Shown here piece after piece: positions 5,360-29,408 of a DNA stretch of 64,000 bases (the first letter of the stretch is position 1; each line of letters opens with the position of its first letter). The stretch covers positions 803-64,802 of the forward strand of contig CADAPM010000019.1 in assembly GCA_902789795.1 (NCBI GenBank), given 5' to 3'. The notes under the pieces were generated by a model. That model did no database searches. It was not told where the DNA came from and was given only the letters and a program-made list of their open reading frames with translations. The stretch is from an uncultured Eubacteriales bacterium. Its GTDB lineage: Bacteria; Bacillota; Clostridia; Christensenellales; Aristaeellaceae. The position numbers and the translations under genes were made by a program.

Positions 5360-5375
5360 GTTTTATCACCCGCTT

Positions 5376-6643: not shown

Positions 6644-6650
6644 ATTGAGA

Positions 6651-6839: not shown

Positions 6840-6865
6840 TTTTGGTATTTCGATAACACGCGCTG

Positions 6866-7040: not shown

Positions 7041-7143
7041 AAGTATTAAAATCATTGAGCATTTTACAAAATAACACAGAGAGAATACAAAATAGCGGAG
7101 TATTCTTGTAAAACCGCCGAAGCCGCACGGCTTAGGAGATGAC

Positions 7144-7797
7144 ATGCGAAAAGAGGATGTTCAACAAAACTATGAGCCATTGCCATTACCCATTGATAAA
7201 CCTTTTGAAAAACTAAGCAAGCAAGAAGCAAAACGGTATTTTGATTGGTTCATATCACATGTGGATGAGCGGTCCGACTATGTGCGCAGCAATGTCGCCG
7301 AATTCTTGGATCTCTCCTTGAATGCCCTTGATTTTTCAATGGAGTCAATAATTCCTGTATGGAAATGGTTTCTGCAGGCTGCAGAAATTCAACCTACTCC
7401 CAAATTGAGACTGAATCAATTGCGAAATGCACTGGTTGCTCGTCACAAGCCGGAGCAATTCATTGATTACATTGTTGAGGCAAATAATAAGGAATTGAGT
7501 TTACTTTCTCTTTACATGATTCGCGATATTGGAATGTACACAGGAAAATCGTTTTTAATGAATTATCCGGTCCTTAAGTGGGGATACCATACCGATACAA
7601 AGAAGGATTCTTTTGCAAATATCCCACAAATATTTGGTTTTGTTAATTATTCTTATAATCCGCCTTTTGAAATGCAGTTTGATCCTATTCATTATGCAGA
7701 AATGGCAGCAGGCAATCTGCTGGTTGGCTCAGCAACGGAGAATGATTTATATGATTTTTGCATGAGATGGGTAAAATGGGTTCCGAATAATAAATGA
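7144..7797 (+). CDS. hypothetical protein (cytosolic, immunity-protein-like flavour only)
   Basis: 217-aa ORF with SD TAGGAGA upstream. I recognise no motif. Confidence 0.55.
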   Translation: MRKEDVQQNYEPLPLPIDKPFEKLSKQEAKRYFDWFISHVDERSDYVRSNVAEFLDLSLNALDFSMESIIPVWKWFLQAAEIQPTPKLRLNQLRNALVARHKPEQFIDYIVEANNKELSLLSLYMIRDIGMYTGKSFLMNYPVLKWGYHTDTKKDSFANIPQIFGFVNYSYNPPFEMQFDPIHYAEMAAGNLLVGSATENDLYDFCMRWVKWVPNNK

Positions 7798-7960
7798 TTC
7801 AGATGAGAATGTAATAGGATTGTGTAAAGGTTGAAGCTTATGAAAAAAGATTGATAATGTTAAGAAAAGATCATCTATTCATATTGTGTATAGCCCGTAA
7901 CACTGATGAATAAGATCAACAGCATCGAAAGCTATCAAAAGAACAATATGGCTTGATTGC

Positions 7961-8329
7961 TTGAAGGAGATCTTCGTTTTGAAAAAGAAGATTACATTGA
8001 TTGCAATTGTCCTGTCGTATTTCTTTGGCGGATTGAATGTATTTGTTTACGAACTCACAAACAGAATCTATTATGGCGCTTATATAGTCGGCGGCATTTT
8101 TCTGTTGATGATACCGATATCCCTCATTGATGATCGGAATAATACGGTATCAAGCAGTGTCGCTCTTATTCTGTTGGTTTTCATTCCGACGTCATTGATG
8201 CTGTTATTGAGTGATACTGGTTTCTGGATCATGATTCTGGGTGAAGTTTTGGTTTATATTCTCTCGATCTGTGCATTTGTTTACACATACCGAAAACCCG
8301 CAAAAGGATATAAGAAGAAGGCGGAATGA
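7961..8329 (+). CDS. small integral membrane protein, hypothetical
   Basis: 122 aa with 3-4 hydrophobic helices and a basic C-terminal tail. The start may be TTG 7979, downstream of the AAGGAGA at 7964-7970. Confidence 0.5.
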   Translation: MKEIFVLKKKITLIAIVLSYFFGGLNVFVYELTNRIYYGAYIVGGIFLLMIPISLIDDRNNTVSSSVALILLVFIPTSLMLLLSDTGFWIMILGEVLVYILSICAFVYTYRKPAKGYKKKAE

Positions 8330-8626: not shown

Positions 8627-10348
8627 ATGTACATTATCGCAAAAGACGGCACCGGGGATTTTACATCGCTCCAGCAGGCGGTGGACTTTGTGCCGGGCGG
8701 CGGGCAGGCGCCGACGATCCTGCTCGTCCGGCCGGGGGTCTACGAGGAGCGCGTGGTGGTGAATAAGGACAACCTGCGCATCATCGGCGAGGACCGGGAC
8801 CGCACGGTGATCACGGCCCGGGGCTGCGCCAAGGATCTGTACCCCGACGGCACGGAGAAGGGCACCTTTCTCTCCGCGACCTTCCTGGTGGCGGGCGATA
8901 ACGTGGAGGTGGAAAACCTGACCATCCGCAACGACGCGGGGGACGGGCGTCAGGTGGGCCAGGCCGTGGCCGTGTACGCGGCGGGAGACCGGGGCGTCTG
9001 GCGGAACGTGCGCATGATCGCGCACCAGGATACGCTGTTCTGCGGCCCGGTGCAGCAGACGGTACTGGACGAGATCGCGCCGCGGCGGTGCCGGGCGGAG
9101 TTTGCGGAGGCGGTCAACGAGCCTGCCCATACCCAGGGCCGCCAGTATTTTGAGGACTGCTTTATTCAGGGCGACGTGGACTTCATCTTCGGCTCCTACC
9201 GCTGCTGGTTCGAGCGCTGCACCCTGTTCATGAACGCCCGGGGCGGCTACTATACCGCCGCCAACACGCCGGAGGACCAGCCCCACGGCTTCGTGTTCCG
9301 CAACTGCAAGCTGACGGGGGAATGTGAAGCGGGCAAGGCTCTCTTGGGCCGCCCCTGGCGCAGGTTCGCCCGCACCGTGTTCCTGGACTGCGAGATGGAT
9401 GAGTGCGTGGCGCCCCAGGGCTTCTGCGACTGGGACGACATCCGGGTGGTGACCGGGCGCATGGGTGAGTATGGCACTACCGGCGCCCGGGCGGACCAGA
9501 GCGCGCGCCATCCCGCCCAGAAGCGCATCACGGCGGAGGAAGCGGAGGGGATCACCCTGCAGGAGGTGCTGGGCGGCTGGGATCAGTGGCAGCCCGACCG
9601 GCGGGTGCCCACCTGGTTCCTCTGCGGCGACAGCACCATGGCCTATTACGCGCCGGACCGCGCGCCCATGATGGGCTGGGGGCAGAAGCTGCAGACCTGG
9701 CTGAACATGAAGGGGATCCACGAGTACGTGGAGGACTGCGCCGTGAACGGCCGCAGCAGCAAAAGCTTCATCGACGAGCAGCGCTTGGCGCACATCATCC
9801 CCTGCCTGCGGCCGGGGGACAGGATGGTGGTCTGCTTCTCCCACAACGATGAGAAGCCGGATCCCGCCCGCGGCACCACGCCCCACGGCACCTTCCCGGA
9901 ATACATGAGCATGTTCATCGACGCGGCCCTGAAGCACGGGGCGGAGCCGATTCTCTCCACGCCCATCGCCCGCCGGCACTTTAGCGACGAGGGCAGGCTG
10001 ATCCCGACCCACGGGGAGTTCCCGGACGCCATCCGGGACCTGGCTGCGCGCCGGGGCGTGCGGCTGATCGACCTGGAAAAGGCCACCATGCGTCTGGTGC
10101 AGGAGGCGGGGCCGGAGGGCTCCCGGCAGATCTACTGCCATGTGCCCGCCGGCTCGGAGCACTATCCCGACGGCCTCCAGGACAACAGCCACCTGCGGGA
10201 GGAGGGGGCCAGCCGCATCGCCCGCCTGTTCCTGGACCGCTATCTGGATTCCGCCTTCCGGGACGCGGACTTTGACGCCGCGGGGACGGACGACTGCGAC
10301 GACCTGATCGCCCGGGAGGACAGCGTTTACGACAAGGCCCAGCACTGA
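8627..10348 (+). CDS. bifunctional pectin methylesterase (CE8) / SGNH-GDSL esterase (rhamnogalacturonan acetylesterase-like, CE12)
   Basis: The N-terminal half has the pectinesterase motifs GQAVAV, HQDTLF, GDVDFIFG and LGRPW. The C-terminal half has the SGNH blocks FLCGDSTM, GWGQ, NGRSSKSF and DNSHL. SD AGGAGGA lies upstream. Confidence 0.85.
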   Translation: MYIIAKDGTGDFTSLQQAVDFVPGGGQAPTILLVRPGVYEERVVVNKDNLRIIGEDRDRTVITARGCAKDLYPDGTEKGTFLSATFLVAGDNVEVENLTIRNDAGDGRQVGQAVAVYAAGDRGVWRNVRMIAHQDTLFCGPVQQTVLDEIAPRRCRAEFAEAVNEPAHTQGRQYFEDCFIQGDVDFIFGSYRCWFERCTLFMNARGGYYTAANTPEDQPHGFVFRNCKLTGECEAGKALLGRPWRRFARTVFLDCEMDECVAPQGFCDWDDIRVVTGRMGEYGTTGARADQSARHPAQKRITAEEAEGITLQEVLGGWDQWQPDRRVPTWFLCGDSTMAYYAPDRAPMMGWGQKLQTWLNMKGIHEYVEDCAVNGRSSKSFIDEQRLAHIIPCLRPGDRMVVCFSHNDEKPDPARGTTPHGTFPEYMSMFIDAALKHGAEPILSTPIARRHFSDEGRLIPTHGEFPDAIRDLAARRGVRLIDLEKATMRLVQEAGPEGSRQIYCHVPAGSEHYPDGLQDNSHLREEGASRIARLFLDRYLDSAFRDADFDAAGTDDCDDLIAREDSVYDKAQH

Positions 10349-11979: not shown

Positions 11980-12756
11980 ATGAAGATCACGATTCTGACG
12001 ATTTTCCCGGAAATGTGCGAGCATGTGCTGTCGTCCAGCATCCTGGGGCGGGCTCGCCAGGCGGGGCTGATCGAGGCCCGGGCGGTGGATATCCGCCCCT
12101 ATTCCAGCCAGAAGCACAAGAATACGGACGATTACCCCTTCGGCGGCGGCCAGGGCATGCTGATGACCGCCCAGCCCATCGCCGACGCCATGAAGGACGT
12201 CTGCGGGCCGGACTTCCACGGGCTGCGCATCTTTATGGGGCCCAAGGGGGAAACGCTTAATCAGAAGCTGGTCGCGGAGCTTTCCCGCGAGCAGGAGCTG
12301 GTGATCCTCTGCGGGCATTACGAGGGCGTGGACCAGCGGGCGCTGGACCACTACATCGACCGGGAGGTCTCCATCGGGGATTACATCCTGACCGGGGGAG
12401 AGCTGGCGGCGCTGGTGCTGACGGACACGGTGGCGCGGCTGATCCCCGGCGTGCTGGGCTCCTCTTCCAGCGCCGTGGACGAGAGCTTTTCCGCCGCCGG
12501 ACTGCTGGAATACCCGCAGTACACCCGGCCCCGGGTCTTTGAGGGCGAGGAGGTGCCGCCGGTGCTGCTGAGCGGCGACCACCGGGCCATCGCCGAATGG
12601 CGGCGGCAGCAGGCGATTCTGGAGACGGCGCGCCTGCGCCCGGACCTGCTCAAGACCGCCGAGCTGACCGGGAAGGAAAAACAGTTTCTGTTAGACCGGG
12701 GCTTTGAGGACGCTGAGGAGCTCGGCAGAACGGAGCGGAATGATGAAGCTGAATGA
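11980..12756 (+). CDS. trmD: tRNA (guanine37-N1)-methyltransferase
   Basis: MKITILTIFPEM..., DDYPFGGGQGMLM, and CGHYEGVDQR...SIGDYILTGGELAA are classic TrmD signatures. Confidence 0.9.
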   Translation: MKITILTIFPEMCEHVLSSSILGRARQAGLIEARAVDIRPYSSQKHKNTDDYPFGGGQGMLMTAQPIADAMKDVCGPDFHGLRIFMGPKGETLNQKLVAELSREQELVILCGHYEGVDQRALDHYIDREVSIGDYILTGGELAALVLTDTVARLIPGVLGSSSSAVDESFSAAGLLEYPQYTRPRVFEGEEVPPVLLSGDHRAIAEWRRQQAILETARLRPDLLKTAELTGKEKQFLLDRGFEDAEELGRTERNDEAE

Positions 12757-15178
12757 CCGCTGGACGATGACCGTGGGCGGGCGGCAGTACCCCTGCCGGG
12801 TGCCCTGCTCGCTGTACGATACCCTGTACCACGCCGGGGAGATCCCGGACCCCTATTTCGGGGAGAACGAATACGCCCTCACCGCGCTCAGCGATCAGGA
12901 CGTGCTGCTGGAGCGCGGGATCGAGCTGCCAGGGGATCTGGCAGGCGCGGACAGGCTGTACCTGACCTTTGAGGGCATCGACACCCTGGGCGAGGTGCGC
13001 CTGAACGGCCAGCTGCTGGGCTGTACGGACAACATGCACCGCACCTGGGAGTATGAGATCGGCTCCCTCCTGCAGCCGGGTGTCCAGCGCCTGAGCGTGC
13101 TCCTGCGCTCGCCGAACCGCTATATTGCCGAGCGCCAGACCGAGCGCCCGTTGTGGGGCGTGGACAGCACCATGCCCGGGTACCCGCACCTGCGCAAGGC
13201 CCACTATATGTTCGGCTGGGACTGGGGTCCCAAGTTGCCCGACCTGGGCCTCTGGCGCGGCGTGCGGCTGGAGGGGTACACGGGCGGCAGGATCCGCGAT
13301 ATGCACATCCGCCAGCGCCATGAGCAGGGCCGCGTGATCCTGAGCTGCGCGGCGGACCTGGACATCTGGTCTGAGGGCCTGACCGCCTGTTGGGAGGTCA
13401 CAGCGCCGGACGGACAGAGCTGGAGCGTGCCGCTCACGAACGGCAGGGCGGAGCTCACGATCGAGCATCCCCAGCTCTGGTGGGTGCGCGGGCTGGGAGA
13501 ACAGCCCCTGTATCTGAACCGGGTGCGCCTGATGAAGGACGGCGTCGAAACCGATGCCCGGGAGCAAAGGCTGGGCCTCCGGACGCTGACGGTCCTCCAG
13601 AAAGAGGACCAGTGGGGGCACGAGTTCTGCTTTGCGGTGAACGGGGTCCGGGTCTTCGCCATGGGCGCGAACTACATCCCGGAGGACCAGATCCTGCCCC
13701 GCTGCACGGCGGAGCGCACAAAAAAGCTGCTCAGCGACTGCGAGCAGGCGAATTACAATTTCATCCGCGTCTGGGGCGGCGGCCTCTACCCCGACGACTG
13801 GTTCTATGACTGGTGCGACGAGCACGGCTTCATCGTCTGGCAGGACTTCATGTTCGCCTGCTCCGCCTACCGCCTGGCCGGCGGCTTCGGGGAGACGGTG
13901 CGGCAGGAAGTCATCGACAACGTGCGCCGGCTCAGGCACCACCCGTCCCTGGGCCTGTGGTGCGGGAACAATGAGATCGAGTCGGCCTGGGTGGGCTGGG
14001 GGCTCCCGGAGGATCCGGAGGCGAAGGCGGATTACACCCGCCTGTTCGAGGAGCTGATCCCGGAGCTTCTGGGCGTCCACGACCCGGACACCTTCTACTG
14101 GCCGTCCTCGCCCTCCTCCGGCGGCGGGTTTAAGGACCCGTCCTCCAACCTGGCCGGGGACATGCACTACTGGGCGGTCTGGCACAGCTTCAAGCCCATT
14201 GAGGCCTTCCGGGCCTTCTATTACCGCTTCTGCTCCGAGTACGGCTTTGAGAGCGTGCCCGACCTGCGCACCGTCCGCGCCTTCGCGGGCGAGGGAGACC
14301 TGGACCTGTGCAGCCCGGCCATCGAGGCGCACCAGAAGTGCACCCTGGGCAATGAAAAGATCATGTTCTACCTGGCGCAGATGGTCAACTATCCCCGGAC
14401 CTTTGAGCGCCTGATCTACTGCTCCCAGTTCGTGCAGGCGGAGAGCATCCGCTCCGACGTGGAGCACATGCGCCGCGCCCGGGGCCGCTGCATGGGCTCG
14501 GCCTACTGGCAGGTCAACGATTCCAACCCTGTGATCTCCTGGAGCAGCATCGACTACTTCGGCCGCTGGAAGGCGCTGCACTACGCCGCCCGCCGCTTCT
14601 ACGCGCCGGTGCTCCTCTCCTGCGACGATACGGACCCGCTGCATCCCGTGCTGTACATGACCAACGACACCCGGGAAACACAGCCCCTGACGGTGGTCTG
14701 CCGCCTGCGGGATAGGAGCGCCGCCGTCCTGAAGGAAGTGCGGGCCGCCTTCACCGCCGAGGCCCTGTCCGCGGCTCCCTGCCTGAATCTTGATCTTTCC
14801 TCGGACCTCAACAGCCTGGAGGACAAACGCACCAAGTACCTGGAATATGTGCTGACGGACGAAAACGGCTGCGCTCTCGGCGCGGGCACCACCCTGTTCA
14901 CCCGGGTGAAGTCCTTCCGTTTCCTGCCCGCGGAGATCCGCTGCGAGGTATCGGAAGAACCCCAGGCCTTTGCAATCACGCTCCGGGCGAATGCCTTCGT
15001 CAAGAGCCTGTGCCTGAGTTTGCGGGATGCGGACGCCGTCTTCAGCGACAACTGGTTCGACCTGCACGGCGACGAGCCCGTGACCGTCACGCTGCCGAAG
15101 GACGGCGAACTCCAGGGCATGAGCGCGGATGACGTCCGGAATCTCCTGGTATTGGAATACTATAACGACGGCAATTAA
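12740..15178 (+). CDS. GH2 beta-mannosidase
   Basis: KAHYMFGWDWGPKLPD, WQDFMFAC, CGNNEIESAW (acid/base) and FCSEYGFES (nucleophile). Length is ~810 aa. The start was moved to ATG 12740, downstream of GGAGCGGA. Confidence 0.85.
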   Translation: MMKLNDRWTMTVGGRQYPCRVPCSLYDTLYHAGEIPDPYFGENEYALTALSDQDVLLERGIELPGDLAGADRLYLTFEGIDTLGEVRLNGQLLGCTDNMHRTWEYEIGSLLQPGVQRLSVLLRSPNRYIAERQTERPLWGVDSTMPGYPHLRKAHYMFGWDWGPKLPDLGLWRGVRLEGYTGGRIRDMHIRQRHEQGRVILSCAADLDIWSEGLTACWEVTAPDGQSWSVPLTNGRAELTIEHPQLWWVRGLGEQPLYLNRVRLMKDGVETDAREQRLGLRTLTVLQKEDQWGHEFCFAVNGVRVFAMGANYIPEDQILPRCTAERTKKLLSDCEQANYNFIRVWGGGLYPDDWFYDWCDEHGFIVWQDFMFACSAYRLAGGFGETVRQEVIDNVRRLRHHPSLGLWCGNNEIESAWVGWGLPEDPEAKADYTRLFEELIPELLGVHDPDTFYWPSSPSSGGGFKDPSSNLAGDMHYWAVWHSFKPIEAFRAFYYRFCSEYGFESVPDLRTVRAFAGEGDLDLCSPAIEAHQKCTLGNEKIMFYLAQMVNYPRTFERLIYCSQFVQAESIRSDVEHMRRARGRCMGSAYWQVNDSNPVISWSSIDYFGRWKALHYAARRFYAPVLLSCDDTDPLHPVLYMTNDTRETQPLTVVCRLRDRSAAVLKEVRAAFTAEALSAAPCLNLDLSSDLNSLEDKRTKYLEYVLTDENGCALGAGTTLFTRVKSFRFLPAEIRCEVSEEPQAFAITLRANAFVKSLCLSLRDADAVFSDNWFDLHGDEPVTVTLPKDGELQGMSADDVRNLLVLEYYNDGN

Positions 15179-15193: not shown

Positions 15194-15236
15194 AAAAACG
15201 GGACTGCCGTACAGCCTGCGGCAGTCCCGTATTTTG
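15194..15236. terminator. bidirectional intrinsic terminator between the beta-mannosidase gene and iorB
   Basis: 11-bp stem CGGGACTGCCG/CGGCAGTCCCG, flanked by an A-run and a T-run. Confidence 0.7.
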
Positions 15237-15250: not shown

Positions 15251-15823
15251 TTATTCCTGCTCGTACCCCAGCGCGAAGGCCTTCAGGTTGATCTCCAGGA
15301 ATTTGGGCGGCACGGTGGCGCGGAGGGTCTCCTCCCACTGCGCGCGGGGGATCGGTGTGTTCTTGGCCAACAGGCCGATCAGCACGACGTTCACGGCCTT
15401 GATGCTGCCGGCCTCCTTCGCCAGCGCCAGGGCGTCCACGGCGGTCACCTTGGCCTGGGCTTTCAGTGTTTCAACGATGCCCTGGGGGTATTCCGCAGCG
15501 CCGGTGATCACCGGCATGGGGTCGATCTGCTGGGTGTTGACGATGATCTGCCCGTCGGGCTTCAGGTAGGGCAGAGCGCGCAGGGCTTCCAGCAGCTCAA
15601 AGGAGAGGATGATGTCCGCGCCGCCCTTTTCGATGATGGGCGACCAGACCTTTTCCCCGAAACGGACGTAGGTGGTCACGCTGCCGCCGCGCTGGCTCAT
15701 GCCGTGCACCTCGGAGACCTTCACGTCATAGCCCGCCTGGGTCAGGGTATTGCCCAGGATGCGGCTGGCCAGCAGGGTGCCCTGGCCGCCGACGCCGACG
15801 ATCATGATGCTCGTGTTGCTCAT
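15251..15823 (-). CDS. iorB: indolepyruvate (arylpyruvate):ferredoxin oxidoreductase, beta subunit
   Basis: 190 aa with IVGVGGQGTLLASRIL and VHGMSQRGGSV. It lies directly downstream of iorA. Confidence 0.85.
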   Translation of the reverse strand: MSNTSIMIVGVGGQGTLLASRILGNTLTQAGYDVKVSEVHGMSQRGGSVTTYVRFGEKVWSPIIEKGGADIILSFELLEALRALPYLKPDGQIIVNTQQIDPMPVITGAAEYPQGIVETLKAQAKVTAVDALALAKEAGSIKAVNVVLIGLLAKNTPIPRAQWEETLRATVPPKFLEINLKAFALGYEQE

Positions 15824-15824
15824 G

Positions 15825-17564
15825 TCACTCCGCCTCCTTTGTGATGGCGTGGAAGGGGCAGACGTTCACGCACAGCCCGCAGCCGTTGCACTGGGTCGGA
15901 TCGACGACCACGCGGCCCTCGCGCACGGTCAGGGCCGGGCAGCCCAGCTTCATGCACACGCGGCAGTTGCGGCAGGCGTCCGCGTCGACCCTGCAATGGC
16001 CCGAGTATTTCACATACTTGAGCAGGGCGCAGGGGCGCTGCGCGATGATCACGGAGGGCTCGTCGGCGGCGACCTCCTCCTTCACGGCGGCCTCCATGGC
16101 CTTCACGTCGAAGGGGTCCACCACGCGCACGCGGCTGATGCCCACGGCCTTGGCCAGGAGCTCCAGGTCCACCTGCTTGGTGGCCTCGCCGCGGATGGTC
16201 TTTCCGGTGGTCGGGTTATCCTGGTGCCCGGTCATGCCGGTGATGGAGTTGTCCAGGATGATGACCGTGTTGATGCCCTTGTTGTACACCACGTCGATGA
16301 GGCCGGTGATGCCCGAATGGATGAAGGTGGAATCGCCGATCACGCTGACCAGCTTCTTGGCGAACTCCGGCCCTCGGGCCTTGGCCATGCCCAGCGCCGC
16401 GCCGATGGAAGCGCCCATGCAGACGGTGGTATCGATGGAGCTCAGGGGCGGCGCCGCGCCGAGGGTGTAGCAGCCGATGTCGCCGCACACGGTCAGGCCC
16501 AGCTTTTTGAGCACGTAGAAGGTGCCGCGGTGCGGGCAGCCCGCGCACATGACCGGCGGGCGCACCGGCACCGGAGAAGCTTTGGGGGCGGGGGCGTCGT
16601 TGACGCCCAGCACGATCGCGCGGATCATGGCGGCGGTGTATTCGCCCAGCAGGGTGAAGGCTTCCTTGCCGATCACCCGGAGGCCCAGGGCCTTCGCGTG
16701 ATCCTCGATGAAGGGATCCAGCTGCTCGATCACATAGGTGGTCTCGTGGGCCTGCACGAAGTCGCTCAGCTTCTTTTCCGGCAGCGGCCAGACCATGCCC
16801 AGCTTCAGGTAGTCCGCCTGGTCGCCCAGCGCCTCCTGGGCGTACAGGTAGGAAATGCCCGCGCAGACCACGCCGATCTTCGCGCCGCTGCCGATGACCT
16901 GGTTCAGCTCCGTCTCCTCCGCAAAGGCTTTCAGGGCCAGGGTGCGCTCCTCCACGCTCACGTGGCGGCGGATGGCGTTGGCGGGGGTCATGACGTACTT
17001 GGCGGGGTCCTTCCGGTAGTCCTTCAGCGGCGCGTCCTCCGGCTCGCTCAGCGTGACCAGGCTCTGGGAGTGGGCCACGCGGGTGGTCAGGCGCAGGAAC
17101 ACAGGCGCGTCAAAGCGCTCGCTCAGCGCATAGGCCGCCTTCGTATAGGCCAGGCACTCGGCGGAGTCCGCGGGCTCCAGCATGGGGCACTTGGCGGCCT
17201 CGGCGTAGTGGCGGCTGTCCTGCTCGTTCTGGCTGGAGTGCATGCCGGGGTCGTCCGCCACGGCGATCACCAGCCCGCCGTTGACGCCGGTGTACCCAGC
17301 GGTGAAGATGGGGTCTGCCATCACGTTGAGGCCGACGTGCTTGCAGCAGGTCATGGCCCGCGCGCCGCCGATGGAAGCGCCGATGGCGACCTCCGCGGCG
17401 ACCTTCTCATTGGGCGCCCATTCGCAGTAAATGTCCGGATACTGGACGATGCTTTCGGTGATCTCCGTGCTCGGCGTGCCGGGATAGGAGGCCACGACGC
17501 GGACGCCGGCCTCATACGCGCCGCGCGCGACGGCGGCGTTGCCGATCAAGAGCTGTGGTTTCAT
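15825..17564 (-). CDS. iorA: indolepyruvate (arylpyruvate):ferredoxin oxidoreductase, alpha subunit
   Basis: 579 aa with the TPP-binding motif GDSTFIHSG...NSITGMTG and a C-terminal 2x[4Fe-4S] motif (CRNCRVCMKLGCP, CNGCGLCVNVCP). Confidence 0.85.
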   Translation of the reverse strand: MKPQLLIGNAAVARGAYEAGVRVVASYPGTPSTEITESIVQYPDIYCEWAPNEKVAAEVAIGASIGGARAMTCCKHVGLNVMADPIFTAGYTGVNGGLVIAVADDPGMHSSQNEQDSRHYAEAAKCPMLEPADSAECLAYTKAAYALSERFDAPVFLRLTTRVAHSQSLVTLSEPEDAPLKDYRKDPAKYVMTPANAIRRHVSVEERTLALKAFAEETELNQVIGSGAKIGVVCAGISYLYAQEALGDQADYLKLGMVWPLPEKKLSDFVQAHETTYVIEQLDPFIEDHAKALGLRVIGKEAFTLLGEYTAAMIRAIVLGVNDAPAPKASPVPVRPPVMCAGCPHRGTFYVLKKLGLTVCGDIGCYTLGAAPPLSSIDTTVCMGASIGAALGMAKARGPEFAKKLVSVIGDSTFIHSGITGLIDVVYNKGINTVIILDNSITGMTGHQDNPTTGKTIRGEATKQVDLELLAKAVGISRVRVVDPFDVKAMEAAVKEEVAADEPSVIIAQRPCALLKYVKYSGHCRVDADACRNCRVCMKLGCPALTVREGRVVVDPTQCNGCGLCVNVCPFHAITKEAE

Positions 17565-19207
17565 GGCTGTACCTCGATCTCGTTTTGTTGCGCGACGACG
17601 CTCTCGCCGCAGTAGATCTCGCGGAGTTTGGGCTTTTCGATCTTGCCGGTGGCGTTGCGCGGCACGTGGGCGAAGATGATCCTGCGCGGGCGCTTGTAGC
17701 GCGGGAGGCCGGCGCAGAAGTCATTGATCTCCTCCTCGGTGGCGGTCATGCCTTCCTTGATCTCAATGATGGCGGCAGCGATCTCGCCCAGGCGCGGGTC
17801 GGGCAGGCCGATCACCGCCACGTCCTTCACCTTGCCGTGGGCGCGGATGAAGTCCTCGATCTGCACCGGGTACAGGTTCTCGCCGCCGGTAATGATGACG
17901 TCCTTCTTGCGGTCCACCAGGTAAATGAAGCCGTCCGGGTCCTGCATGGCCATATCGCCGGTATAGAGCCAGCCGTCCTTCAATACCTCGTTGGTGGCCT
18001 GCTCGTCCTTATAGTAGCAGGTCATGACGCCGGGGCCCTTCACGCAGAGCTCGCCCACGCTGCCCTGCTCCACGGGCACGCCCTGGGGGGTCACGATCTT
18101 CACCTCCCAGCCGTAGCCGGGAATGCCGATGGCGCCGACCTTGTGCGTGTTCTCCACGCCCAGGTGCACGCAGCCCGGGCCGATGGACTCGGACAGGCCG
18201 TAGTTGGTATCGTACTGATGGTGGGGGAACACGCTGAGCCAGCGCTTGATCAGGGACGGCGGCACCGGCTGCGCGCCGATGTGCATCAGCCGCCACTGGC
18301 TGAGCTGGTAGTCCTCAAGCTTTACGTCGCCGCGTTCGATGGCGTCCAGAATGTCCTGGGCCCAGGGCACCAGCAGCCACACGATGGTGCAGCGCTCGTC
18401 GCTGACGGCCTTCAGCACCCATTCGGGGCGGGTGCCCTTCAAAAGCACGGCCTTGCCGCCCATCAGGAAGCTGCCGAACCAGTGCATCTTGGCTCCTGTA
18501 TGATACAGCGGCGGGATGCACAGGAACACGTCGTCATGGGTCTGGCCGTGGTGCTTCTGCTCGACGACGGCGGCATGCATGAGCGAGCGGTGCTTATGCA
18601 GGATGGCCTTGGGGAAGCCGGTGGTGCCGGAGGAGTAGTAGACCGCGCCGTAATCGTCGTCGGTGATGGGGATCTTCGGGTCGTCGGTGGAGCAGAAGCC
18701 GATCATCTCGTTGAAGCTGTCGGCGAAGGTCGGGCAGTCCTCGCCCACGTAGAAGAGGTGGCGCACCTTGGGAATGCGGTCGCAGATCTCCTCCATGCGG
18801 CCGATGAACTCCGGCCCGAACACGAGCATGGTGCAGTCGGCCTTTTCCAGGCAGTAGCGGATCTCCTCCGCCGTATAGCGGTAGTTGAGGGGCACGGCCA
18901 CCGCGCCGGCGCGCAGAATGCCGAAGTAGGCGGGCAGCCATTCCAGCGAGTTCATCATCAGGATGGCCACCTTATCGCCCTTGTGGCAGCCGCGGGTCAG
19001 CAGCAGGTTGGCAAAGCGGTTCGCCTTCCGGTCGAAGTCCTTCCAGGTCATCTCCCGGCGGAAGGGCTGGCCCGGCTCAGGCTGCATCAGCGAATACTCG
19101 CGCCAGGTGATGCGGCTTTCCGGCTCGAAATGGGGGTTGATCTCGACCAGAGCGGTCTCCTGCCCGTAAAGCTCCGCATTGCGGCGCAGGATCTCAGTGA
19201 TTGGCAT
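17561..19207 (-). CDS. AMP-forming acyl-CoA synthetase/ligase (class I adenylate-forming enzyme)
   Basis: YYSSGTTGFPKAILHKH, YGLSE, and YTGDMA...DRKKDVIITGGENLYP. The start was set at ATG 19207 (SD AGGAGG). There is a 4-nt overlap with iorA. Confidence 0.85.
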   Translation of the reverse strand: MPITEILRRNAELYGQETALVEINPHFEPESRITWREYSLMQPEPGQPFRREMTWKDFDRKANRFANLLLTRGCHKGDKVAILMMNSLEWLPAYFGILRAGAVAVPLNYRYTAEEIRYCLEKADCTMLVFGPEFIGRMEEICDRIPKVRHLFYVGEDCPTFADSFNEMIGFCSTDDPKIPITDDDYGAVYYSSGTTGFPKAILHKHRSLMHAAVVEQKHHGQTHDDVFLCIPPLYHTGAKMHWFGSFLMGGKAVLLKGTRPEWVLKAVSDERCTIVWLLVPWAQDILDAIERGDVKLEDYQLSQWRLMHIGAQPVPPSLIKRWLSVFPHHQYDTNYGLSESIGPGCVHLGVENTHKVGAIGIPGYGWEVKIVTPQGVPVEQGSVGELCVKGPGVMTCYYKDEQATNEVLKDGWLYTGDMAMQDPDGFIYLVDRKKDVIITGGENLYPVQIEDFIRAHGKVKDVAVIGLPDPRLGEIAAAIIEIKEGMTATEEEINDFCAGLPRYKRPRRIIFAHVPRNATGKIEKPKLREIYCGESVVAQQNEIEVQP

Positions 19208-19243
19208 AGTGCTTGGACCTCCTTTTTCCTGTTGGAGAGCAAA

Positions 19244-19497
19244 TAAAAAAGCCCTCCGCAAATCGAAGAGGACGATAAGATCATTACCGCGGTACCACCT
19301 CTATTGCCGCCGGAGACCTCCGGACGGCCGCTCGCGTGCGCGTTGACGGGCGCACCCGGCGCAGCCTACACAGGATTCATCCCTTCGGTGCGCGACTCGC
19401 GGGCTGTATTCGGCCGGAACGCCCCTCCTGCCTTGCACCACCCGGCAGGTCTCTAAAAAGCGCGTCATCCGCCTACTTGTTCCCGGTCATTGTCTTT
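19244..19497 (-). promoter_or_regulatory. T-box riboswitch leader, apparent Tyr (UAC) specifier
   Basis: Minus-strand RNA elements seen:
- K-turn gacaAUGAc/cGAguc.
- AGUA box.
- AGAGA bulge.
- Distal hairpin CCUGCC-GGGUGGUGCAA-GGCAGG.
- Specifier loop GAA-UAC-A (UAC = 19406-19408).
- Stem III CCGGAG-GU-CUCCGG.
- T-box AAUAGAGGUGGUACCGCGG.
- Terminator GUCCUCU-N9-GGAGGGC followed by U6. Confidence 0.8.
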
Positions 19498-19504
19498 CAC
19501 GGGC

Positions 19505-19532
19505 ATTATACCACATTTTCCCGGTGCGTCAA
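19505..19532 (-). promoter_or_regulatory. sigma-A-type promoter for the T-box leader
   Basis: On the minus strand: TTGACG, a 16-nt spacer, then TG-n-TATAAT. It ends ~7 nt before the leader. Confidence 0.65.
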
Positions 19533-19571
19533 GACGGGCGGTTGTGCTTTCAATGTATATGTGGGATTAGC

Positions 19572-19607
19572 GGGGGAGGGGCTTTTCTGGAGAAAAGCCC
19601 CTCCCCC
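19572..19607. repeat. perfect 15-bp inverted repeat with polypurine arm (terminator-like, no U-tract)
   Basis: GGGGGAGGGGCTTTT-CTGGAG-AAAAGCCCCTCCCCC, located downstream of the thioesterase gene. Confidence 0.7.
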
Positions 19608-19629
19608 GCACCCCCCTCCGCAAAAGACT

Positions 19630-20043
19630 TTACTTTTTGGGGAGAACTTGGTCCAGCGATTCGCAGAATTCCGGGAGCTGGCGCTTGAGGCGCACGAAGG
19701 CGCCTTCCTTGTTCAGAAACACGTGCTCGGAGCGGGCGGTGCAGACGGTGGTGCCTTCGGCGTTCTTCATCTCGTAGGCGAGGGCCAGCACCACGCCGTT
19801 GAAGAACTCGGCGGTGACGGTGATGGTGATCTCATCGCCGAAGGTGGAGGTGTGGCGGTAGTCGCACTGCACGGATTTGACGGGGGAATAGACCTGGGCG
19901 GCCTCCATCCGGGTATAGGGGAAGCCCAGCTGGTCCATGAAGTCGATGCGGGCCTCCTCCATCCAGCGGATATAGTTGGAATGGTGGGTCAGGCCCATCA
20001 TGTCCGTTTCGTAGTACTGCACCTTATGGGTATAGGGGGTCAT
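19630..20043 (-). CDS. acyl-CoA thioesterase, hotdog fold (YbgC/4HBT-like)
   Basis: 137 aa with YYETDMMGLTHHSNYIRWMEEAR. There is a 4-nt overlap with the upstream phosphatase gene. Confidence 0.75.
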   Translation of the reverse strand: MTPYTHKVQYYETDMMGLTHHSNYIRWMEEARIDFMDQLGFPYTRMEAAQVYSPVKSVQCDYRHTSTFGDEITITVTAEFFNGVVLALAYEMKNAEGTTVCTARSEHVFLNKEGAFVRLKRQLPEFCESLDQVLPKK

Positions 20044-22075: not shown

Positions 22076-24171
<2,096 letters not shown>

Positions 24172-24228
24172 GGTAGGTAGGAGGTAGGAGTGAGGAGTGA
24201 GGAGTTCAGGAAGAAACTCCTCGCCTCT
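24172..24228 (+). repeat. polypurine SD-like repeat array (copy E1) forming a hairpin directly after the gyrB stop
   Basis: GGTAGGTAGGAGGTAGGAGTGAGGAGTGAGGAGTT pairs with AACTCCTCGCCTC. The core GTAGGAGGTAGGAGTGAGGA closely matches 40331-40352. Confidence 0.65.
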
Positions 24229-24264
24229 GGCTCGGAGTTTCCTCGATTGCAACGAGGCATGCCT

Positions 24265-24936
24265 ATGAAGCGTTCACTTGCATTGTTATTGGTCGTATGT
24301 CTGCTGCTGCCCTGCGCGGCGCTGGCCGAGCTGAGCGAGGACGTGAAAACGCTGATGGTTGAGACGACGGAAGAGCTGACGGCGGTCATGCTGGAAAAGG
24401 GACGGTCGGCGGCCTATCTGAAGTGGTTTGGCGTGGACGGCGCGGACCCTGCGCTGCAGTCCCGCAACAATGAGATCGTCTCGTCGGACTGGAACGCCGT
24501 TTCGGGAGGGACGATCTATGTCCTGAAGGAAGGCGCGGTGGACGCGATACTTTCCGTGTGGGACATGCGCCTGAATGACTTCCCGCCCGTGGTCGTCGAC
24601 GCCGCCCGGAAAGAAGCGGCAAGTATGCTCGCCGACATCGTCATCAACCATTACTGTGTCAGTTTTCAGGACGAGCGCTTGATGGATGCGGCCAAGGTGA
24701 TGATCTCCGAGACCGCCCTGGCAGTCGATGAGGCGTTTCCGGAGCTGAGCATCGCGCTGCTTCACTCCGCGCATGACTACGACACGATCTGCACCTTCAT
24801 CCGGACGGGGGATGCCGCCTTTGCCGTTGCGATGCCCATTCCCACGGGCCGCGAAGAGATCCTGAAGCAGGCGATGGGCAAAAGCTTTTTGACGCTCAAC
24901 ACCAGCCGGCTGTATGAAGAATACGTTGTCGAGTGA
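24265..24936 (+). CDS. secreted hypothetical protein, paralog 1
   Basis: Signal peptide MKRSLALLLVVCLLLPCAALA/ELSED. It shares blocks with the next gene (GTIYVLKEGAVDAILS..LNDFP versus GTVFVLRDGAVDAYLS..LEDFP). Confidence 0.65.
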   Translation: MKRSLALLLVVCLLLPCAALAELSEDVKTLMVETTEELTAVMLEKGRSAAYLKWFGVDGADPALQSRNNEIVSSDWNAVSGGTIYVLKEGAVDAILSVWDMRLNDFPPVVVDAARKEAASMLADIVINHYCVSFQDERLMDAAKVMISETALAVDEAFPELSIALLHSAHDYDTICTFIRTGDAAFAVAMPIPTGREEILKQAMGKSFLTLNTSRLYEEYVVE

Positions 24937-24945
24937 GGACGAACG

Positions 24946-25602
24946 ATGATGAGAAAACGCCTGATTCTCCTGATCGCGGGGCTGATTCTGGCGCTGTGCC
25001 TCCCGGCGTCGGCCGAGCTGGATCCCGAGGCTCAAGCGCTCCTGCTCCAAAGGACGCGTGCCCTGACCGCGCTGATGGCCGAGTCCGCAGGCAATGAGAA
25101 TTATCTCAAGCTGTACCTGGGGCCGGGGAACGACGACGTGGCGGACACGGTCCGCAGGATCGGCGCTTCGGGCTGGGAGAAGCCGGAGGAGGGCACGGTC
25201 TTCGTGCTGCGCGATGGCGCGGTGGACGCCTATCTCTCCGCCTCGCGGCTGTCGCTTGAGGATTTCCCGGAGAGCCTGCGGGAGCGCGTCCGTCAGGCGG
25301 TCGTGGGCTCCATGCCCCAGGCGGTGGTCAATCAGGCCGGCATTGATCTGATGAGAGCGGTGTCCGTACTGCGGACCGGCGAGGTCTTTCTGGCCGATAA
25401 CGATTTCCCCGGCGGCGCGATCGTGTACCTGCGCTGCAATCCGGACTACGCCGTCCTTTGCTCCTTTGTGAAAAATGCCGACAACATCGTATCCGCCAGT
25501 CTGGTGCCCGCCCCGGCGAACTGCCTGGACAAGCTCAGGCAGATGCTGAAGGTGTTCGGACAAAACACAGCCTTGTTTGAAGAGTATCCGTTGGTCAAAT
25601 GA
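24946..25602 (+). CDS. secreted hypothetical protein, paralog 2
   Basis: Signal peptide MMRKRLILLIAGLILALCLPASA/ELD. It is clearly homologous to 24265-24936. Confidence 0.65.
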   Translation: MMRKRLILLIAGLILALCLPASAELDPEAQALLLQRTRALTALMAESAGNENYLKLYLGPGNDDVADTVRRIGASGWEKPEEGTVFVLRDGAVDAYLSASRLSLEDFPESLRERVRQAVVGSMPQAVVNQAGIDLMRAVSVLRTGEVFLADNDFPGGAIVYLRCNPDYAVLCSFVKNADNIVSASLVPAPANCLDKLRQMLKVFGQNTALFEEYPLVK

Positions 25603-25682
25603 AAACGGCCCGAATGATGCCATGAAAGGGGGCGGCGGCAACGGAACACAGAAGAACGAACGCGTGGCGGCAGTATACCGTC

Positions 25683-26750
25683 ATGCACCTGGACCGACGG
25701 GTCGCCTCCATTCGCAGCGATGGGACCTGCACGGTGTATGCGCCTAACTTCATGCCCTGGAACCTGTATCTGGAACAGGCGGCGGACATGGACGCGCGGG
25801 TGAATAACCTGAATAATTTCTATTACTGGTGCGCCTCCCGGGTGCTGACGCTGGACCGGAAATACGCCAAGGAGATCCTGAACAGCATCGGGATGAAGCA
25901 GGCGGCGACGGACCGCGAGCGGGCAGAGATCGCCCTCAGCTACCATTGCGTCACCCTGACGGACGTCTACTGGGCGAGGGGATACCGGGAGAAGCTCAGT
26001 TACGGCGAGATCAGCCTCTATGACCATTCCCTGTCCGACGCCTTCGTGGATGTGAGCCTGCGCGGCAGGGCGCTGACCGCGCAGAACGCCGAGCTGCTGC
26101 CCGTCCGGGATGCCGCCGGCGACATATCGACCCAGGGCGCGGCCCCCAAAGCCTGGATTCGCCGGGAAGGGCAGTTTCTGCTGCTCAAGGACGGAGATGC
26201 CGGGCACGTGGAGGCGGAGCTGACCGCCAGCCGGGTCGCGCGGTGCTTCGATGTGCCGCAGGTGCTGTACGAGCCTTGGGAGTATGAGGGCCAGCAAGTC
26301 AGCGTGAGCCGCCTGATGACCTCCCGGGAGCGCAGCATTGTCCCGATGGAGCACGCGGAGATCTGGGCCGCGAACCATGGGACGGATATCTACAGCTTGG
26401 CGCGCAGGATCGACCTGCGCGGCTACTGCATGATGAACATCATTGACTACCTGGTGGGCAATACAGACCGGCACTGGGGCAACTGGGGTTTCCTGATGGA
26501 TAACCGCACGAATGAGCCGATCTCCCTGTTCCCGCTGATGGATTTCAACCAGGCCTTCCAAAGCTATGACACACTTGAAGGCGCTCGGTGCCTGACCACC
26601 CCCGGCAGCATGAGCCAGCTGGACGCCGCCCGGAACGCCGTCCGCCAGATCGGCCTGAACCAAACGGCCGAGATCCGGCGCGAATGGTTCCCAGACCCCG
26701 CCCGATGGACGATGCTCCAAGACCGACTAAATGTATTGCGCACCCAATAA
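25683..26750 (+). CDS. HipA-like serine/threonine kinase domain protein
   Basis: The C-terminal catalytic-loop pattern DYLVGNTDRHWGNWGF and the following PLMDFNQAF match the HipA_C signature. Neither a HipB-like HTH gene nor a HipA N-terminal domain is evident. Confidence 0.6.
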   Translation: MHLDRRVASIRSDGTCTVYAPNFMPWNLYLEQAADMDARVNNLNNFYYWCASRVLTLDRKYAKEILNSIGMKQAATDRERAEIALSYHCVTLTDVYWARGYREKLSYGEISLYDHSLSDAFVDVSLRGRALTAQNAELLPVRDAAGDISTQGAAPKAWIRREGQFLLLKDGDAGHVEAELTASRVARCFDVPQVLYEPWEYEGQQVSVSRLMTSRERSIVPMEHAEIWAANHGTDIYSLARRIDLRGYCMMNIIDYLVGNTDRHWGNWGFLMDNRTNEPISLFPLMDFNQAFQSYDTLEGARCLTTPGSMSQLDAARNAVRQIGLNQTAEIRREWFPDPARWTMLQDRLNVLRTQ

Positions 26751-26793
26751 ACCCACCCCAAAAAGTAAAAGTCTTCTGAAAGAGGAGAGGGTG

Positions 26794-26841
26794 CAGGGAG
26801 AGGAGGAAGCTCTTCTCCAGAAGAGTTTCCTCCTCTCCCTG
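26794..26841. repeat. perfect 15-bp inverted repeat with polypurine arm and nested inner hairpin
   Basis: CAGGGAGAGGAGGAA-[GCTCTTCTCCAGAAGAGT]-TTCCTCCTCTCCCTG, located between the HipA-like gene and gyrA. Confidence 0.7.
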
Positions 26842-26870
26842 CTAAAACCCCCACATGAAAGGAAAAAACT

Positions 26871-29408
26871 ATGCCCAGTGAGATCAACGACCGCCTGCTG
26901 CCTGCCGACCTTGAAACGGAGATGAAGACCTCGTTCATCGCATACGCGATGGCGGTCATCATCAACCGCGCGCTGCCGGACGTGCGCGACGGTTTGAAGC
27001 CGGTGCACCGGCGCATCCTGTTCGACATGAACGAGCTCGGCATGACGCCGGATAAGCCCTTCCGCAAGTCCGCGCGCCTGGTGGGCGACGTGCTCGGTAA
27101 GTTCCATCCCCATGGCGACGCATCCGTGTACGACGCCATGGTCCGTCTGGCCCAGGATTTCTCTATCCGCTATCCGCTGGTGGAGGGCCAGGGCAATTTC
27201 GGCTCCGTGGACGGCGACGGCGCGGCGGCCATGCGTTATACCGAGGCGAGGATGAGCAAGATCTGCACCTATATGATGCAGGATATCGACAAGGACACCG
27301 TCGATTTCATGCCCAACTTCGACGAGACGCTGATGCAGCCCACGGTGCTGCCCTCCCGCTTCCCCAATTTGCTGGTCAACGGCAGCCAGGGCATTGCGGT
27401 CGGTATGGCGACGAACATTCCGCCCCATAACCTGCGCGAGGTCATCAACGGCGCGATCTGCCTGATCGATAACCCGGACGCGAGCCTGGACGACCTGATG
27501 GAGCACATCAAGGGCCCCGACTTCCCGACCGGTGGCGTGATCCTGGGCCTGTCCGGCGTGCGCGAAGCCTACTATACCGGCAAGGGCCATATCACGGTCC
27601 GCGCCAAGAGCGAGATCGAGGACATGGGCCACGACCGCGCGCGCATCGTCGTGACCGAGATCCCGTATATGGTCAATAAGGCGCGCCTGGTGGAAAAGAT
27701 CGGCGAGCTCGTGCGCGAGAAGCAGGTGGAGGGCATCAGCGACCTGCGCGACGAGTCCGACCGCAACGGCATGCGCATCGTCATCGAGCTCAAGAAGGAC
27801 GTGCAGCCCGCCGTCGTGATGAACTACCTGTATAAGCATACCCAGCTGCAGGACACCTTCGGCGTGAATATGCTGGCGCTGGTGGACGGCCACCCGCGCG
27901 TGCTGAGCCTGCGCGACGTGCTGTACTACTACATCCGCCACCAGGATGACGTGGTCACCCGCCGCACCCAGTATAACCTCGAGAAGGACCGCGCCCGCGC
28001 GCATATCCTCGAGGGCCTGCTGAAGGCGCTGGATAATATCGACGAGGTCGTGCATATCATCCGCACCAGCAAGGATACCGGCACCGCCAAGGAAAACCTG
28101 ATGTCCCGCTTTGACTTTTCTGACAAGCAGGCCCAGGCCATTCTCGATATGCGCCTGGCCCGCCTGACCAACCTGGAAAGCGATAAGCTGCAGGCTGAGT
28201 ACGACGAGATAGAGGCTGACATCGCGTATCTGGAGGGCTTGCTGGCCGACAAGACCAAGCTGATGGCCGTGATCAAGGACGAGCTTTCCGTGATCCGCGA
28301 CAAGTTCGGCGACGACCGCCGCACGGAGCTCTCTCCCGTGGAGGGCGAGATCGACGTGGAGGACCTGATCGCCGTGGACGACATGGTGGTCACCCTGACC
28401 CACTTCGGCTATGTCAAGCGCATTTCCAAGTCCGTGTACCGCGCCCAGAACCGCGGCGGCAAGGGCGTCAGCGGCATGACGACGCGCGACGAGGACTTCG
28501 CGGAGCAGATCTGCATCGTGAACACACACCAGGACGTGATGTTCTTCACCAACCTGGGCCGCGTGTATATGCTGCGCTGCTACCAGATCCCCGAGGCCGG
28601 GCGCACGGCCCGCGGCACGGCCATTATCAACCTGCTGCAGCTGACCACGGGCGAGAAGGTGACCACGATGCTGCCGCTGCCCAAGGAGGGTGACGGCTAC
28701 AGCCTGATCATGGCCACCAAGGGCGGCTATATCAAGAAGACGGAACTGGACGAGTTCCGTAACCTGCGCAAGATGGGCCTGTACGCCGTGACCCTGATGG
28801 AGGGCGACGAGCTGGTAGGCGTGCGCCTGTGCCGTGAGGGCGATACCCTGCTGATGGGCACCCGCGACGGCCGCGCCATCCGCTTCAGCACCGGCGACGT
28901 GCGCACCATGGGCCGCCAGGCCCGCGGCGTGCGCTCCATGCGCCTGGGCGCGGGCGACCAGGTGATCGACCTCTGCGTGATCGAAGAGGGCGGCCTGGTG
29001 CTGAACATCACCGAAAACGGCTACGGCAAGCGCACCGACCCCGAGCTCTACCGCGAGCAGAGCCGCGGCGGCATGGGCGTGAAGGCCATGGCCCTGACGG
29101 ACAAGACCGGCCCGCTGACGGCCCAGCTGATCGTGCACGAGGACGAGGATATCCTGCTCATCACCGACGACGGCACCATTATCCGCATGCCCGTCAGCAG
29201 CATCCGCGTCTGCGGCCGCGTGGCCCAGGGCGTGCGCCTGATGCGCGTGGGCGACGAGCGCCGCATCATTTCCGTCTGCCGCGCCGATCCTGAGGAACAG
29301 GAAGCAGCGGAGGAAACGGCGCTGATGGATGTGGACGAGACCGCAGCCGTGAGCGACGAAGGAATGAACGGTGAGGATACTGCAGAAGATACCACGGACA
29401 TCGAGTAA
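26871..29408 (+). CDS. gyrA: DNA gyrase subunit A
   Basis: [28 protein letters not shown] and [10 protein letters not shown] (catalytic Tyr), with C-terminal beta-pinwheel repeats and an acidic tail. Confidence 0.95.

Follow-up and report, generated by a model that had tools for sequence, protein, structure and literature searches.

Annotations and models of gut and rumen genomes routinely treat the genes for indolepyruvate/arylpyruvate:ferredoxin oxidoreductase (Ior) as catabolic sources of arylacetates, which raises the question of what such genes do behind an RNA switch that responds to lack of an amino acid. The case is presented by a 64-kb stretch of DNA from an uncultured Eubacteriales bacterium (contig CADAPM010000019.1, positions 803 to 64,802; hereafter the window, in whose numbering its features are given), in which an AMP-forming acyl-CoA ligase gene, iorA and iorB follow a T-box leader. 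A T-box switches genes on when its cognate tRNA is uncharged, i.e. when the amino acid is short. A preliminary description, made from the letters alone, had proposed that the switch responds to tRNA-Tyr and that the genes serve a salvage route from arylacetate to tyrosine. That the leader is a Tyr-specific T-box we regard as virtually certain; that it gates the salvage of 4-hydroxyphenylacetate to tyrosine by the ligase, IorA and IorB is, in our judgement, fairly probable.

In an Rfam scan the T-box (RF00230) is the single RNA family of the window, at 19265-19499 on the minus strand, which also carries the operon and all leader features described below. Its score of 113.2 bits (gathering score 93; E 3e-24) comes from a match to model positions 1-219 of 219, and model and covariation together define Stem I, Stem II, IIA/B, Stem III and the antiterminator. 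Immediately upstream a pattern scan identifies a sigma-70-type promoter (19505-19532) consisting of TTGACG, a 16-nt spacer and an extended -10 element, TG-TATAAT (TGxTATAAT), with 11 of 12 hexamer matches and the TG present. A UGA/GAG kink-turn at the base of Stem I, an AGUA/GAA S-turn, an AGAGA bulge and a distal loop can all be read from the sequence. The 5' side of the specifier internal loop ends in AGUA and its 3' side is GAA-UAC-A (G19411 to A19405), placing the Tyr codon UAC at 19406-19408 between the S-turn GAA (19411-19409) and the conserved purine A19405. The minimum-free-energy fold of the whole leader is uninformative (z = -0.16), and sub-domain folds and covariation were used instead; Stem I folded alone recovers the specifier loop with GAAUACAG unpaired.

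At the other end of the leader the T-box sequence is AGGUGGUACCGCG, with the UGGU of the bulge (19294-19297, read 19297-19294) as pairing partner for the N73-CCA 3' end of the tRNA. The U in this bulge fits a tRNA with the discriminator A73, which we take to be that of tRNA-Tyr; no tRNA genes are found within the 64-kb window. A fold of 19262-19305 and covariation (helices 9 and 10) give the antiterminator helix (19267-19302), AGAGG...CCUCU enclosing GCGGUAA...UUAUCGU. The leader terminator (19245-19273) is a 7-bp stem, GUCCUCU/GGAGGGC, in which 19273-19267 pairs with 19257-19251, followed by UUUUUUAUUU, the U6 tract; the antiterminator's 3' arm and the terminator's 5' arm overlap, and the two helices compete for the CCUCU strand common to both. 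With a full-model score, a specifier loop that has both S-turn and 3' purine, and a UGGN bulge in an antiterminator that excludes the terminator, the window RNA is a typical T-box of the transcription-attenuation type. The canonical T-box of the preliminary description, its GAA-UAC-A specifier and its UGGU bulge are thus all borne out, the first by a covariance-model match above the gathering score, and the position of UAC in the specifier loop by fold and covariation alike.

These features are held in common by the leader's relatives. An alignment of the window leader with 20 genome-derived homologues has a mean column identity of only 54%, yet AAUAC is invariant in all 21, the next base is A in 20 of them, GGUGGUA is likewise invariant and the bulge is always UGGU. 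Seventeen leaders have the canonical GAA-UAC-A, one reads GAA-UAC-C (locus L011) and one CAA-UAC-A (L029). The helices flanking the specifier loop show compensatory changes in 5/5 and 6/6 pairs, and double (compensatory) changes occur in 41 of the 47 pairs of the complete structure. Paired cells amount to 90.8%, a share that drops to 38-50% on sliding the partners by 1 to 3 columns, and the observed values were reached in 0 of 500 shuffles. An invariant codon and covarying stems across 21 species indicate purifying selection, and the leader is therefore not a relic.

Three genes lie behind the switch. The first (17561-19207) encodes a 548-residue, FadD/4CL-like AMP-forming acyl-CoA ligase (family 'c0'), with the AMP-binding core PF00501 at 4.8e-76 and the C-terminal domain PF13193. 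The second is iorA (15825-17564), for the alpha subunit, thiamine pyrophosphate (TPP)-binding and with two [4Fe-4S] clusters (TIGR03336, 708.3 bits, cut-off 650.9), and the third iorB (15251-15823), for the beta subunit (NF005325, 291.1 bits, cut-off 230). Judged by their domains (POR_N, TPP_enzyme_C, Fer4, POR) and by scores in excess of both NCBIfam equivalog cut-offs, IorA and IorB are typical of their families; this membership and the logic of the regulation together suggest that the enzyme would act on arylpyruvates and arylacetyl-CoA, and in which direction it would run in vivo. The preliminary description had overlapping stop and start codons throughout. This holds for ligase and iorA, which share ATGA and are translationally coupled, but not for iorA and iorB, whose junction is TGA-c-ATG with a 1-nt spacer. 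The ligase start is ATG 19207, 10 nt downstream of a GGAGG ribosome-binding site (19222-19218), and its product begins MPITEIL like the homologues; TTG 19261, the listed start of the open reading frame, lies inside the terminator and was rejected.

The ligase belongs to the ANL (class I adenylate-forming) enzymes, as SSGTTGxPK (S192-K200), TGD (T416-D418) and G521-K522, which includes the catalytic C-terminal Lys, are unchanged across 11 homologues. Among NCBIfam models it scores highest with PRK06187 (NF004837), a subfamily of long-chain fatty-acid-CoA ligases, but its 418.6 bits fall short of the cut-off of 476, and that identity was accordingly not assigned. Nor was that of the phenylacetate ligase PaaK (TIGR02155): the window protein carries PF13193 instead of PF14535 (AMP-binding_C_2) and has 548 residues vs about 430, and the PaaK model is absent among the 25 best-scoring of the 108 NCBIfam families that it matches. 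The closest solved structures are FadD13, feruloyl-CoA synthetase, FadD5 and 4-coumarate-CoA ligases. The nearest relatives by structure or NCBIfam thus span fatty-acyl, feruloyl, coumaroyl, malonyl and other substrates, and neither source lends itself to an inference of substrate. It is the context, that is the Tyr T-box, the coupling to iorA and the parallel with Phe T-boxes and PaaK described below, from which we propose that the window enzyme is a 4-hydroxyphenylacetate-CoA ligase.

Is the association of switch and genes peculiar to this organism? A one-genome-per-species scan with the ligase gave at least 595 carriers, and uncultured Clostridia of gut and rumen have very many members of the family. 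We surveyed the loci of the best 80 (69-94% identity), mostly Clostridia metagenome-assembled genomes (MAGs) labelled Acutalibacteraceae, Oscillospiraceae, Lachnospiraceae or Ruminococcus, the closest being a goat-omasum MAG (L001, 94%). Searches by motif, with Rfam (two runs) and with a custom covariance model (R1) built from the hits agree in finding a T-box heading the operon in 20 of the 80 species, at 94-126 bits, and R1 detects no additional T-box in the 80 loci at E <= 1. The switch lies directly before the ligase gene in 11 of the 20 and before an SSF transporter gene followed by the ligase in the other nine, the carriers are spread over several clades of the ligase tree, and every specifier is UAC, so that the survey bears out the tyrosine assignment of the preliminary description. 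In 47 of the 80 loci the next genes after the ligase are iorA and iorB, and iorA, with or without iorB, belongs to 15 of the 20 T-box operons. In L014, L019, L051 and L072 iorAB is not next to the ligase and the T-box controls ligase and transporter; the ligase is therefore the constant member of the regulon. These data show that the link of T-box and ligase is under selection. In 11 full-operon loci that lack a T-box, the only other RNAs above the Rfam gathering threshold are tRNAs and one small-RNA motif far from the operon.

Neighbour-gene clustering reveals a recurrent larger operon, made up of the SSF transporter, ligase, iorA, iorB, a PaaK-like ligase and an ACT-pair protein. The PaaK-like gene of the relatives is separate from the ligase gene and its product reaches 545 bits against the PaaK cut-off of 646. 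Twelve of the 20 T-box operons include a transporter, 11 of the SSF type and one of the MFS type. The SSF proteins (PF00474) have NCBIfam similarity to PutP, PanF and the monocarboxylate transporter MctC, all under cut-offs, and the MFS protein is of the lactate and oxalate/formate type; both fit the uptake of a carboxylic acid. A class I/II aminotransferase gene follows iorB in three loci (L035, L054, L055), none of which has a T-box.

A second line of evidence on the ligase step comes from a metagenome scan with the PaaK-like ligase, which added 80 loci, bringing those examined to 160, and in which the custom model found 26 T-boxes. Most carry UAC and head ligase-iorAB-paaK operons with or without the SSF gene. 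In four loci, however, a T-box with the Phe codon UUC, in the setting GAG-UUC-A or GAA-UUC-A, lies directly upstream of a paaK-ACT operon (L093:210-453, L101:6688-6930, L106:3356-3592, L135:451-688). Three of these (L093, L106, L135) have Rfam scores of 95-106 bits, above threshold, and L101 is nearly identical to L093 in the stretches compared and scores 161.5 bits with the custom model. The mean identity of the Phe leaders to the Tyr set is 59-60%, close to the 62% of the window's own leader, while unrelated T-boxes in the same loci reach only 44-47%. The simplest reading of these identities is that a single leader lineage underwent a one-base specifier change (UAC to UUC) that accompanied a change of ligase. 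The type of ligase matches the amino acid sensed, and since the UUC leaders precede PaaK-like genes, the ligase step tracks the sensed amino acid. No Trp-specifier counterpart was found in the 160 loci. Whether gut and rumen Firmicutes have dedicated T-box-gated modules, Tyr (UAC) with the FadD/4CL-like 4-hydroxyphenylacetate-CoA ligase and Phe (UUC) with PaaK, their leaders differing by a one-base specifier switch, we rate at about an even chance.

The proposed mechanism is as follows. When tyrosine is short, the anticodon of uncharged tRNA-Tyr(GUA) would pair with UAC and its free ACCA end with UGGU; binding of the tRNA would stabilise the antiterminator, and RNA polymerase is predicted to read through into the operon. 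The ligase would convert 4-hydroxyphenylacetate to its CoA thioester at the expense of ATP, cleaved to AMP and pyrophosphate, and IorAB, working in the reductive direction with reduced ferredoxin and CO2, would carboxylate 4-hydroxyphenylacetyl-CoA to 4-hydroxyphenylpyruvate, from which an aminotransferase encoded elsewhere would form tyrosine. In relatives the transporter of the same T-box operon would import the acid. We infer the salvage direction from the logic of the T-box, the coupling of ligase and iorA, the carboxylate-type transporters, the parallel of Phe leaders with PaaK and a limit on Ior substrates: by the enzymology of 2-oxoacid:ferredoxin oxidoreductases, arylacetyl-CoA alone among the tyrosine-derived acids (as CoA) suits an Ior-type carboxylation. 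The operon is carried by rumen and gut anaerobes, whose habitats are rich in arylacetates. That arylacetates are carboxylated to aromatic amino acids in the rumen has been known physiologically for decades, and labelled arylacetates reportedly enter Phe, Tyr and Trp there, in work ascribed to Allison (1965) and Kristensen (1974). The phenylacetate-to-Phe route is repeated in PMC7356843, and that an AMP-forming ligase favours thioester synthesis is the same thermodynamic argument as made for Bacteroides Ior (PMC13285125). All available computational tests support the arylacetate-to-tyrosine reading of the preliminary description, with the substrate and the direction of Ior proposed from context as set out above.

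Several findings weigh against this salvage route. The sequence of the ligase does not point to arylacetates; the protein, by domain content and length, is not a PaaK, and no member of its family has been characterised. Ior takes all three arylpyruvates, so that specificity for tyrosine would be conferred by the T-box alone. In about 60 of the 80 species the ligase has no T-box, and in 33 no iorAB adjoins it, Ruminococcus albus and R. flavefaciens, with the ligase alone, being among the latter. No T-box version was found in a cultured organism among the homologues returned by protein searches; the one cultured and named organism with the ligase, Ruminococcus albus KH2T6 (L065), has neither T-box nor adjacent iorAB. 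The window's own operon includes neither aminotransferase nor transporter, and no aromatic amino acid genes were found across the rest of the window. The register of the specifier is not canonical in four leaders (L020, L072, L108, L113), which have one extra A (GAAA-UAC-A/G), two of them, L020 and L072 with GAAA-UAC-A, among the 21 aligned. A human-gut lineage adds to this: about 18 near-identical contigs have a T-box operon of the UAC set with a membrane protein of about 230 residues encoded between iorB and paaK, and the loop of this lineage reads GAAUUACUC, an ambiguous sequence in which the codon is either UAC shifted by one base (then followed by U) or UUA (Leu). The leaders concerned, with the T-box at approximately 2030-2277, are those of L087, L089-L091, L094, L096, L098, L099, L102, L105, L109, L110, L134, L143, L145, L148 and L150.

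The breadth of Ior suggests a more general scheme, in which a broad-range ligase and Ior recycle phenylacetate, 4-hydroxyphenylacetate and indoleacetate to Phe, Tyr and Trp, with tRNA-Tyr as a proxy for aromatic shortage. Characterised Ior enzymes accept phenyl-, hydroxyphenyl- and indolepyruvate (PMC13285125), and as many T-box(Tyr) operons run on into the PaaK-like ligase and ACT genes, the Tyr signal also switches a probable phenylacetate ligase. A general aromatic signal is less easily reconciled with specifiers that are UAC in all 20 genome-derived leaders as well as the window's and a Phe or Trp codon in none, the separate Phe T-boxes for PaaK alone argue for ligases matched to their amino acid, and the window operon has the FadD-like ligase only. 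We consider such general salvage unlikely. It is more doubtful still that the ligase acts on another acid, such as a hydroxycinnamate, 3-(4-hydroxyphenyl)propionate or a fatty acid, with a looser pairing to Ior and a transporter that may import tyrosine. This would accord with the fatty-acyl, feruloyl and 4-coumarate ligases that are its closest solved relatives, with the 33 of 80 species in which ligase and iorAB do not adjoin, with five T-box loci in which only a transporter or the contig end lies beside the ligase, and with SSF proteins most similar to proline and pantothenate symporters. The translational coupling of ligase and iorA in the window, the frequency with which iorAB directly follows the ligase (47 of 80 species, 15 of 20 T-box operons), the restriction of Ior-type carboxylation to arylacetyl-CoA and the occurrence of a PaaK paralogue in the ligase position in L128, L133, L137 and L140 all speak for an arylacetate. 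That IorAB instead oxidises arylpyruvates to arylacetyl-CoA, the T-box being a relic or having some other regulatory meaning, is very improbable even if Ior is annotated and often studied as catabolic and each step is described as reversible in PMC13285125, because breakdown of tyrosine switched on by uncharged tRNA-Tyr would be counter-productive, catabolic clusters conserve ATP with a phosphotransacylase and kinase or an ADP-forming ligase rather than an AMP-forming one, and the leader, as shown above, is under purifying selection. Regulatory logic and the AMP-forming ligase thus uphold the preliminary objection to the usual catabolic annotation, and salvage of 4-hydroxyphenylacetate to tyrosine is the reading that we retain.

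Several variants of the operon in other genomes merit description. The membrane protein of about 230 residues has no Pfam or NCBIfam match, and its gene lies between iorB and paaK inside the T-box operon at L009:10033-10731, L020:9970-10653, L090:6310-6984 and about 25 other metagenome loci, including those of the prevalent human-gut lineage; perhaps the protein is an arylacetate transporter that has gone unrecognised. In L128, L133, L137 and L140 (e.g. L133:1343-8746) the order is SSF transporter, PaaK paralogue, iorA, iorB, PaaK and ACT, with no T-box, the second PaaK being about 50% identical to the first and occupying the position of the FadD-like ligase, which suggests several ligases with different arylacetate specificities. 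In Ruminococcus and Lachnospiraceae loci (L019:3682-5403, also L048, L052, L073) the ligase adjoins a gene for an NhaC-family (PF03553) transporter; in Bacilli, orthologues from this family are predicted to be tyrosine transporters under T-box(Tyr) control (PMC2494555), a further, indirect link of the ligase to tyrosine. The ligase is also found, at 71-73% identity, in MAGs labelled Thermoguttaceae, Lentisphaerae, Victivallales and Bacteroidaceae (L027, L036, L047, L056, L062, L077), which suggests either horizontal spread in gut and rumen communities or mis-binned contigs. One gut Clostridia MAG has an OLE (ornate large extremophilic) RNA, at 487 bits (L031:11974-12609), a few kb downstream of its T-box operon.

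In the window, the operon ends at a 14-bp GC-rich hairpin followed by a T-run (15198-15230, minus strand), a strong terminator that lies opposite a convergent GH2 gene and may be active in both directions. Upstream, an 18-bp GC-rich hairpin read from the sequence (19570-19609, minus strand) lies between a thioesterase gene (19630-20043) and the T-box promoter, and is a probable terminator or insulator setting the T-box operon apart as its own transcription unit. The YbgC-type thioesterase was rejected as an operon member, given this large hairpin and the promoter that intervene, and it is not a conserved neighbour in the gene-cluster map. As hairpin and promoter separate the thioesterase gene upstream and the terminator hairpin ends the operon downstream, the T-box operon is a three-gene unit of its own.

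The remainder of the window shows two low-GC islands, 1-8000 and approximately 31500-35500 (35-45% against a background of 60-66%), which were probably acquired horizontally and are perhaps defence or mobile elements; the first encodes a DUF2290 protein (275-943), a UvrD-like helicase/NTPase (936-3062) and an ATPase_2+DUF234 protein (3140-4543). The genes gyrB (22108-24171) and gyrA (26871-29408) are split (22108-29408) by two inserted genes, one (24286-25641, minus strand) with no Pfam match and the other (25683-26750) with a weak match to HipA_C. A cluster for myo-inositol catabolism (43451-51601), comprising an IolD-like TPP enzyme, KduI/IolB, GFO/IDH, aldehyde dehydrogenase, PfkB kinase, class II aldolase and a DeoR regulator, together with a pectinesterase (8627-10348) and the GH2 gene (12704-15178), marks the host as a degrader of plant fibre.

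If gut and rumen Firmicutes do have such paired Tyr and Phe modules, the formation of aromatic amino acids by reductive carboxylation of arylacetates would for the first time be accounted for at the level of genes and regulation. The T-box switch is natural regulatory evidence that Ior runs toward amino acid synthesis in these Clostridia, and the rumen conversion of arylacetates to aromatic amino acids, an old observation that had no genetic basis, gains candidate genes in the new ligase family, the SSF transporter and the unannotated 230-residue membrane protein. With the paired modules these Clostridia would be regulated sinks for 4-hydroxyphenylacetate and phenylacetate. Those pools feed the host-relevant compounds p-cresol and phenylacetylglutamine, and their treatment in metabolic models is affected. 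The paired Tyr and Phe leaders offer a clean natural test case for T-box specificity changing together with the target enzyme.

How does the window operon compare with systems already known? The oxidative Stickland pathway of Clostridium scatologenes (HpdDEFG, HpdJ, HpdK; PMC13285125) has the same intermediates, 4-hydroxyphenylpyruvate, 4-hydroxyphenylacetyl-CoA and 4-hydroxyphenylacetate, and likewise employs a ferredoxin-dependent 2-oxoacid oxidoreductase. That pathway is catabolic, gaining ATP through a phosphotransacylase and kinase, its enzyme is VOR-like with four subunits, and its genes are induced during growth on tyrosine (PMC13285125), whereas the window operon has an ATP-spending ligase and a predicted induction by tyrosine starvation. 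Another known system is that of IorAB and PaaK-type AMP-forming ligases in Bacteroides and methanogenic archaea, in which, as here, a two-subunit Ior (TIGR03336 plus IOR beta) is found beside an AMP-forming ligase; the iorAB-paaK-ACT module itself recurs among relatives of the window operon. The window ligase differs from these PaaK proteins in belonging to another branch of the adenylate-forming enzymes, FadD/4CL-like, of 548 residues and with PF13193 rather than PF14535, and the operon differs in being gated by tRNA-Tyr charging through a T-box, of which there is no report for those systems. A biosynthetic role has been suggested for Bacteroides Ior (PMC13285125), and a reverse, biosynthetic IOR/VOR was proposed for a methanogen in earlier work, as cited there. 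The idea of a biosynthetic Ior with an AMP-forming ligase is therefore not new, and only the link to a T-box appears to be undescribed. The preliminary description was not aware of an account of it, and in the full-text literature no paper on this link was found: none of about 8.3 million full texts contains both T-box and indolepyruvate, a mention in Vitreschak et al. 2008, Porat et al. 2004, TBDB or RegPrecise not being excluded, and nothing relevant pairs T-box with phenylacetate or acyl-CoA.

As an RNA the window leader belongs with the T-box riboswitches, whose prototype is the leader of Bacillus subtilis tyrS and with which it shares a Stem I with kink-turn, S-turn, UAC and purine, AG bulge and distal loop, Stem II, IIA/B, Stem III, UGGU and the competing antiterminator and terminator, and thus the same codon and the same discriminator logic. 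It differs in its targets, an acyl-CoA ligase and a 2-oxoacid:ferredoxin oxidoreductase, not an aminoacyl-tRNA synthetase, de novo biosynthesis or an amino acid transporter; as Tyr targets the T-box survey PMC2494555 gives tyrS, an NhaC-family transporter and, in the B. cereus group, the Tyr biosynthesis operon and the phenylalanine-4-hydroxylase gene. The same paper recounts the experiment in which Grundy and Henkin switched the specifier of tyrS. The sister lineage in which UAC has become UUC is a natural parallel to that experiment.

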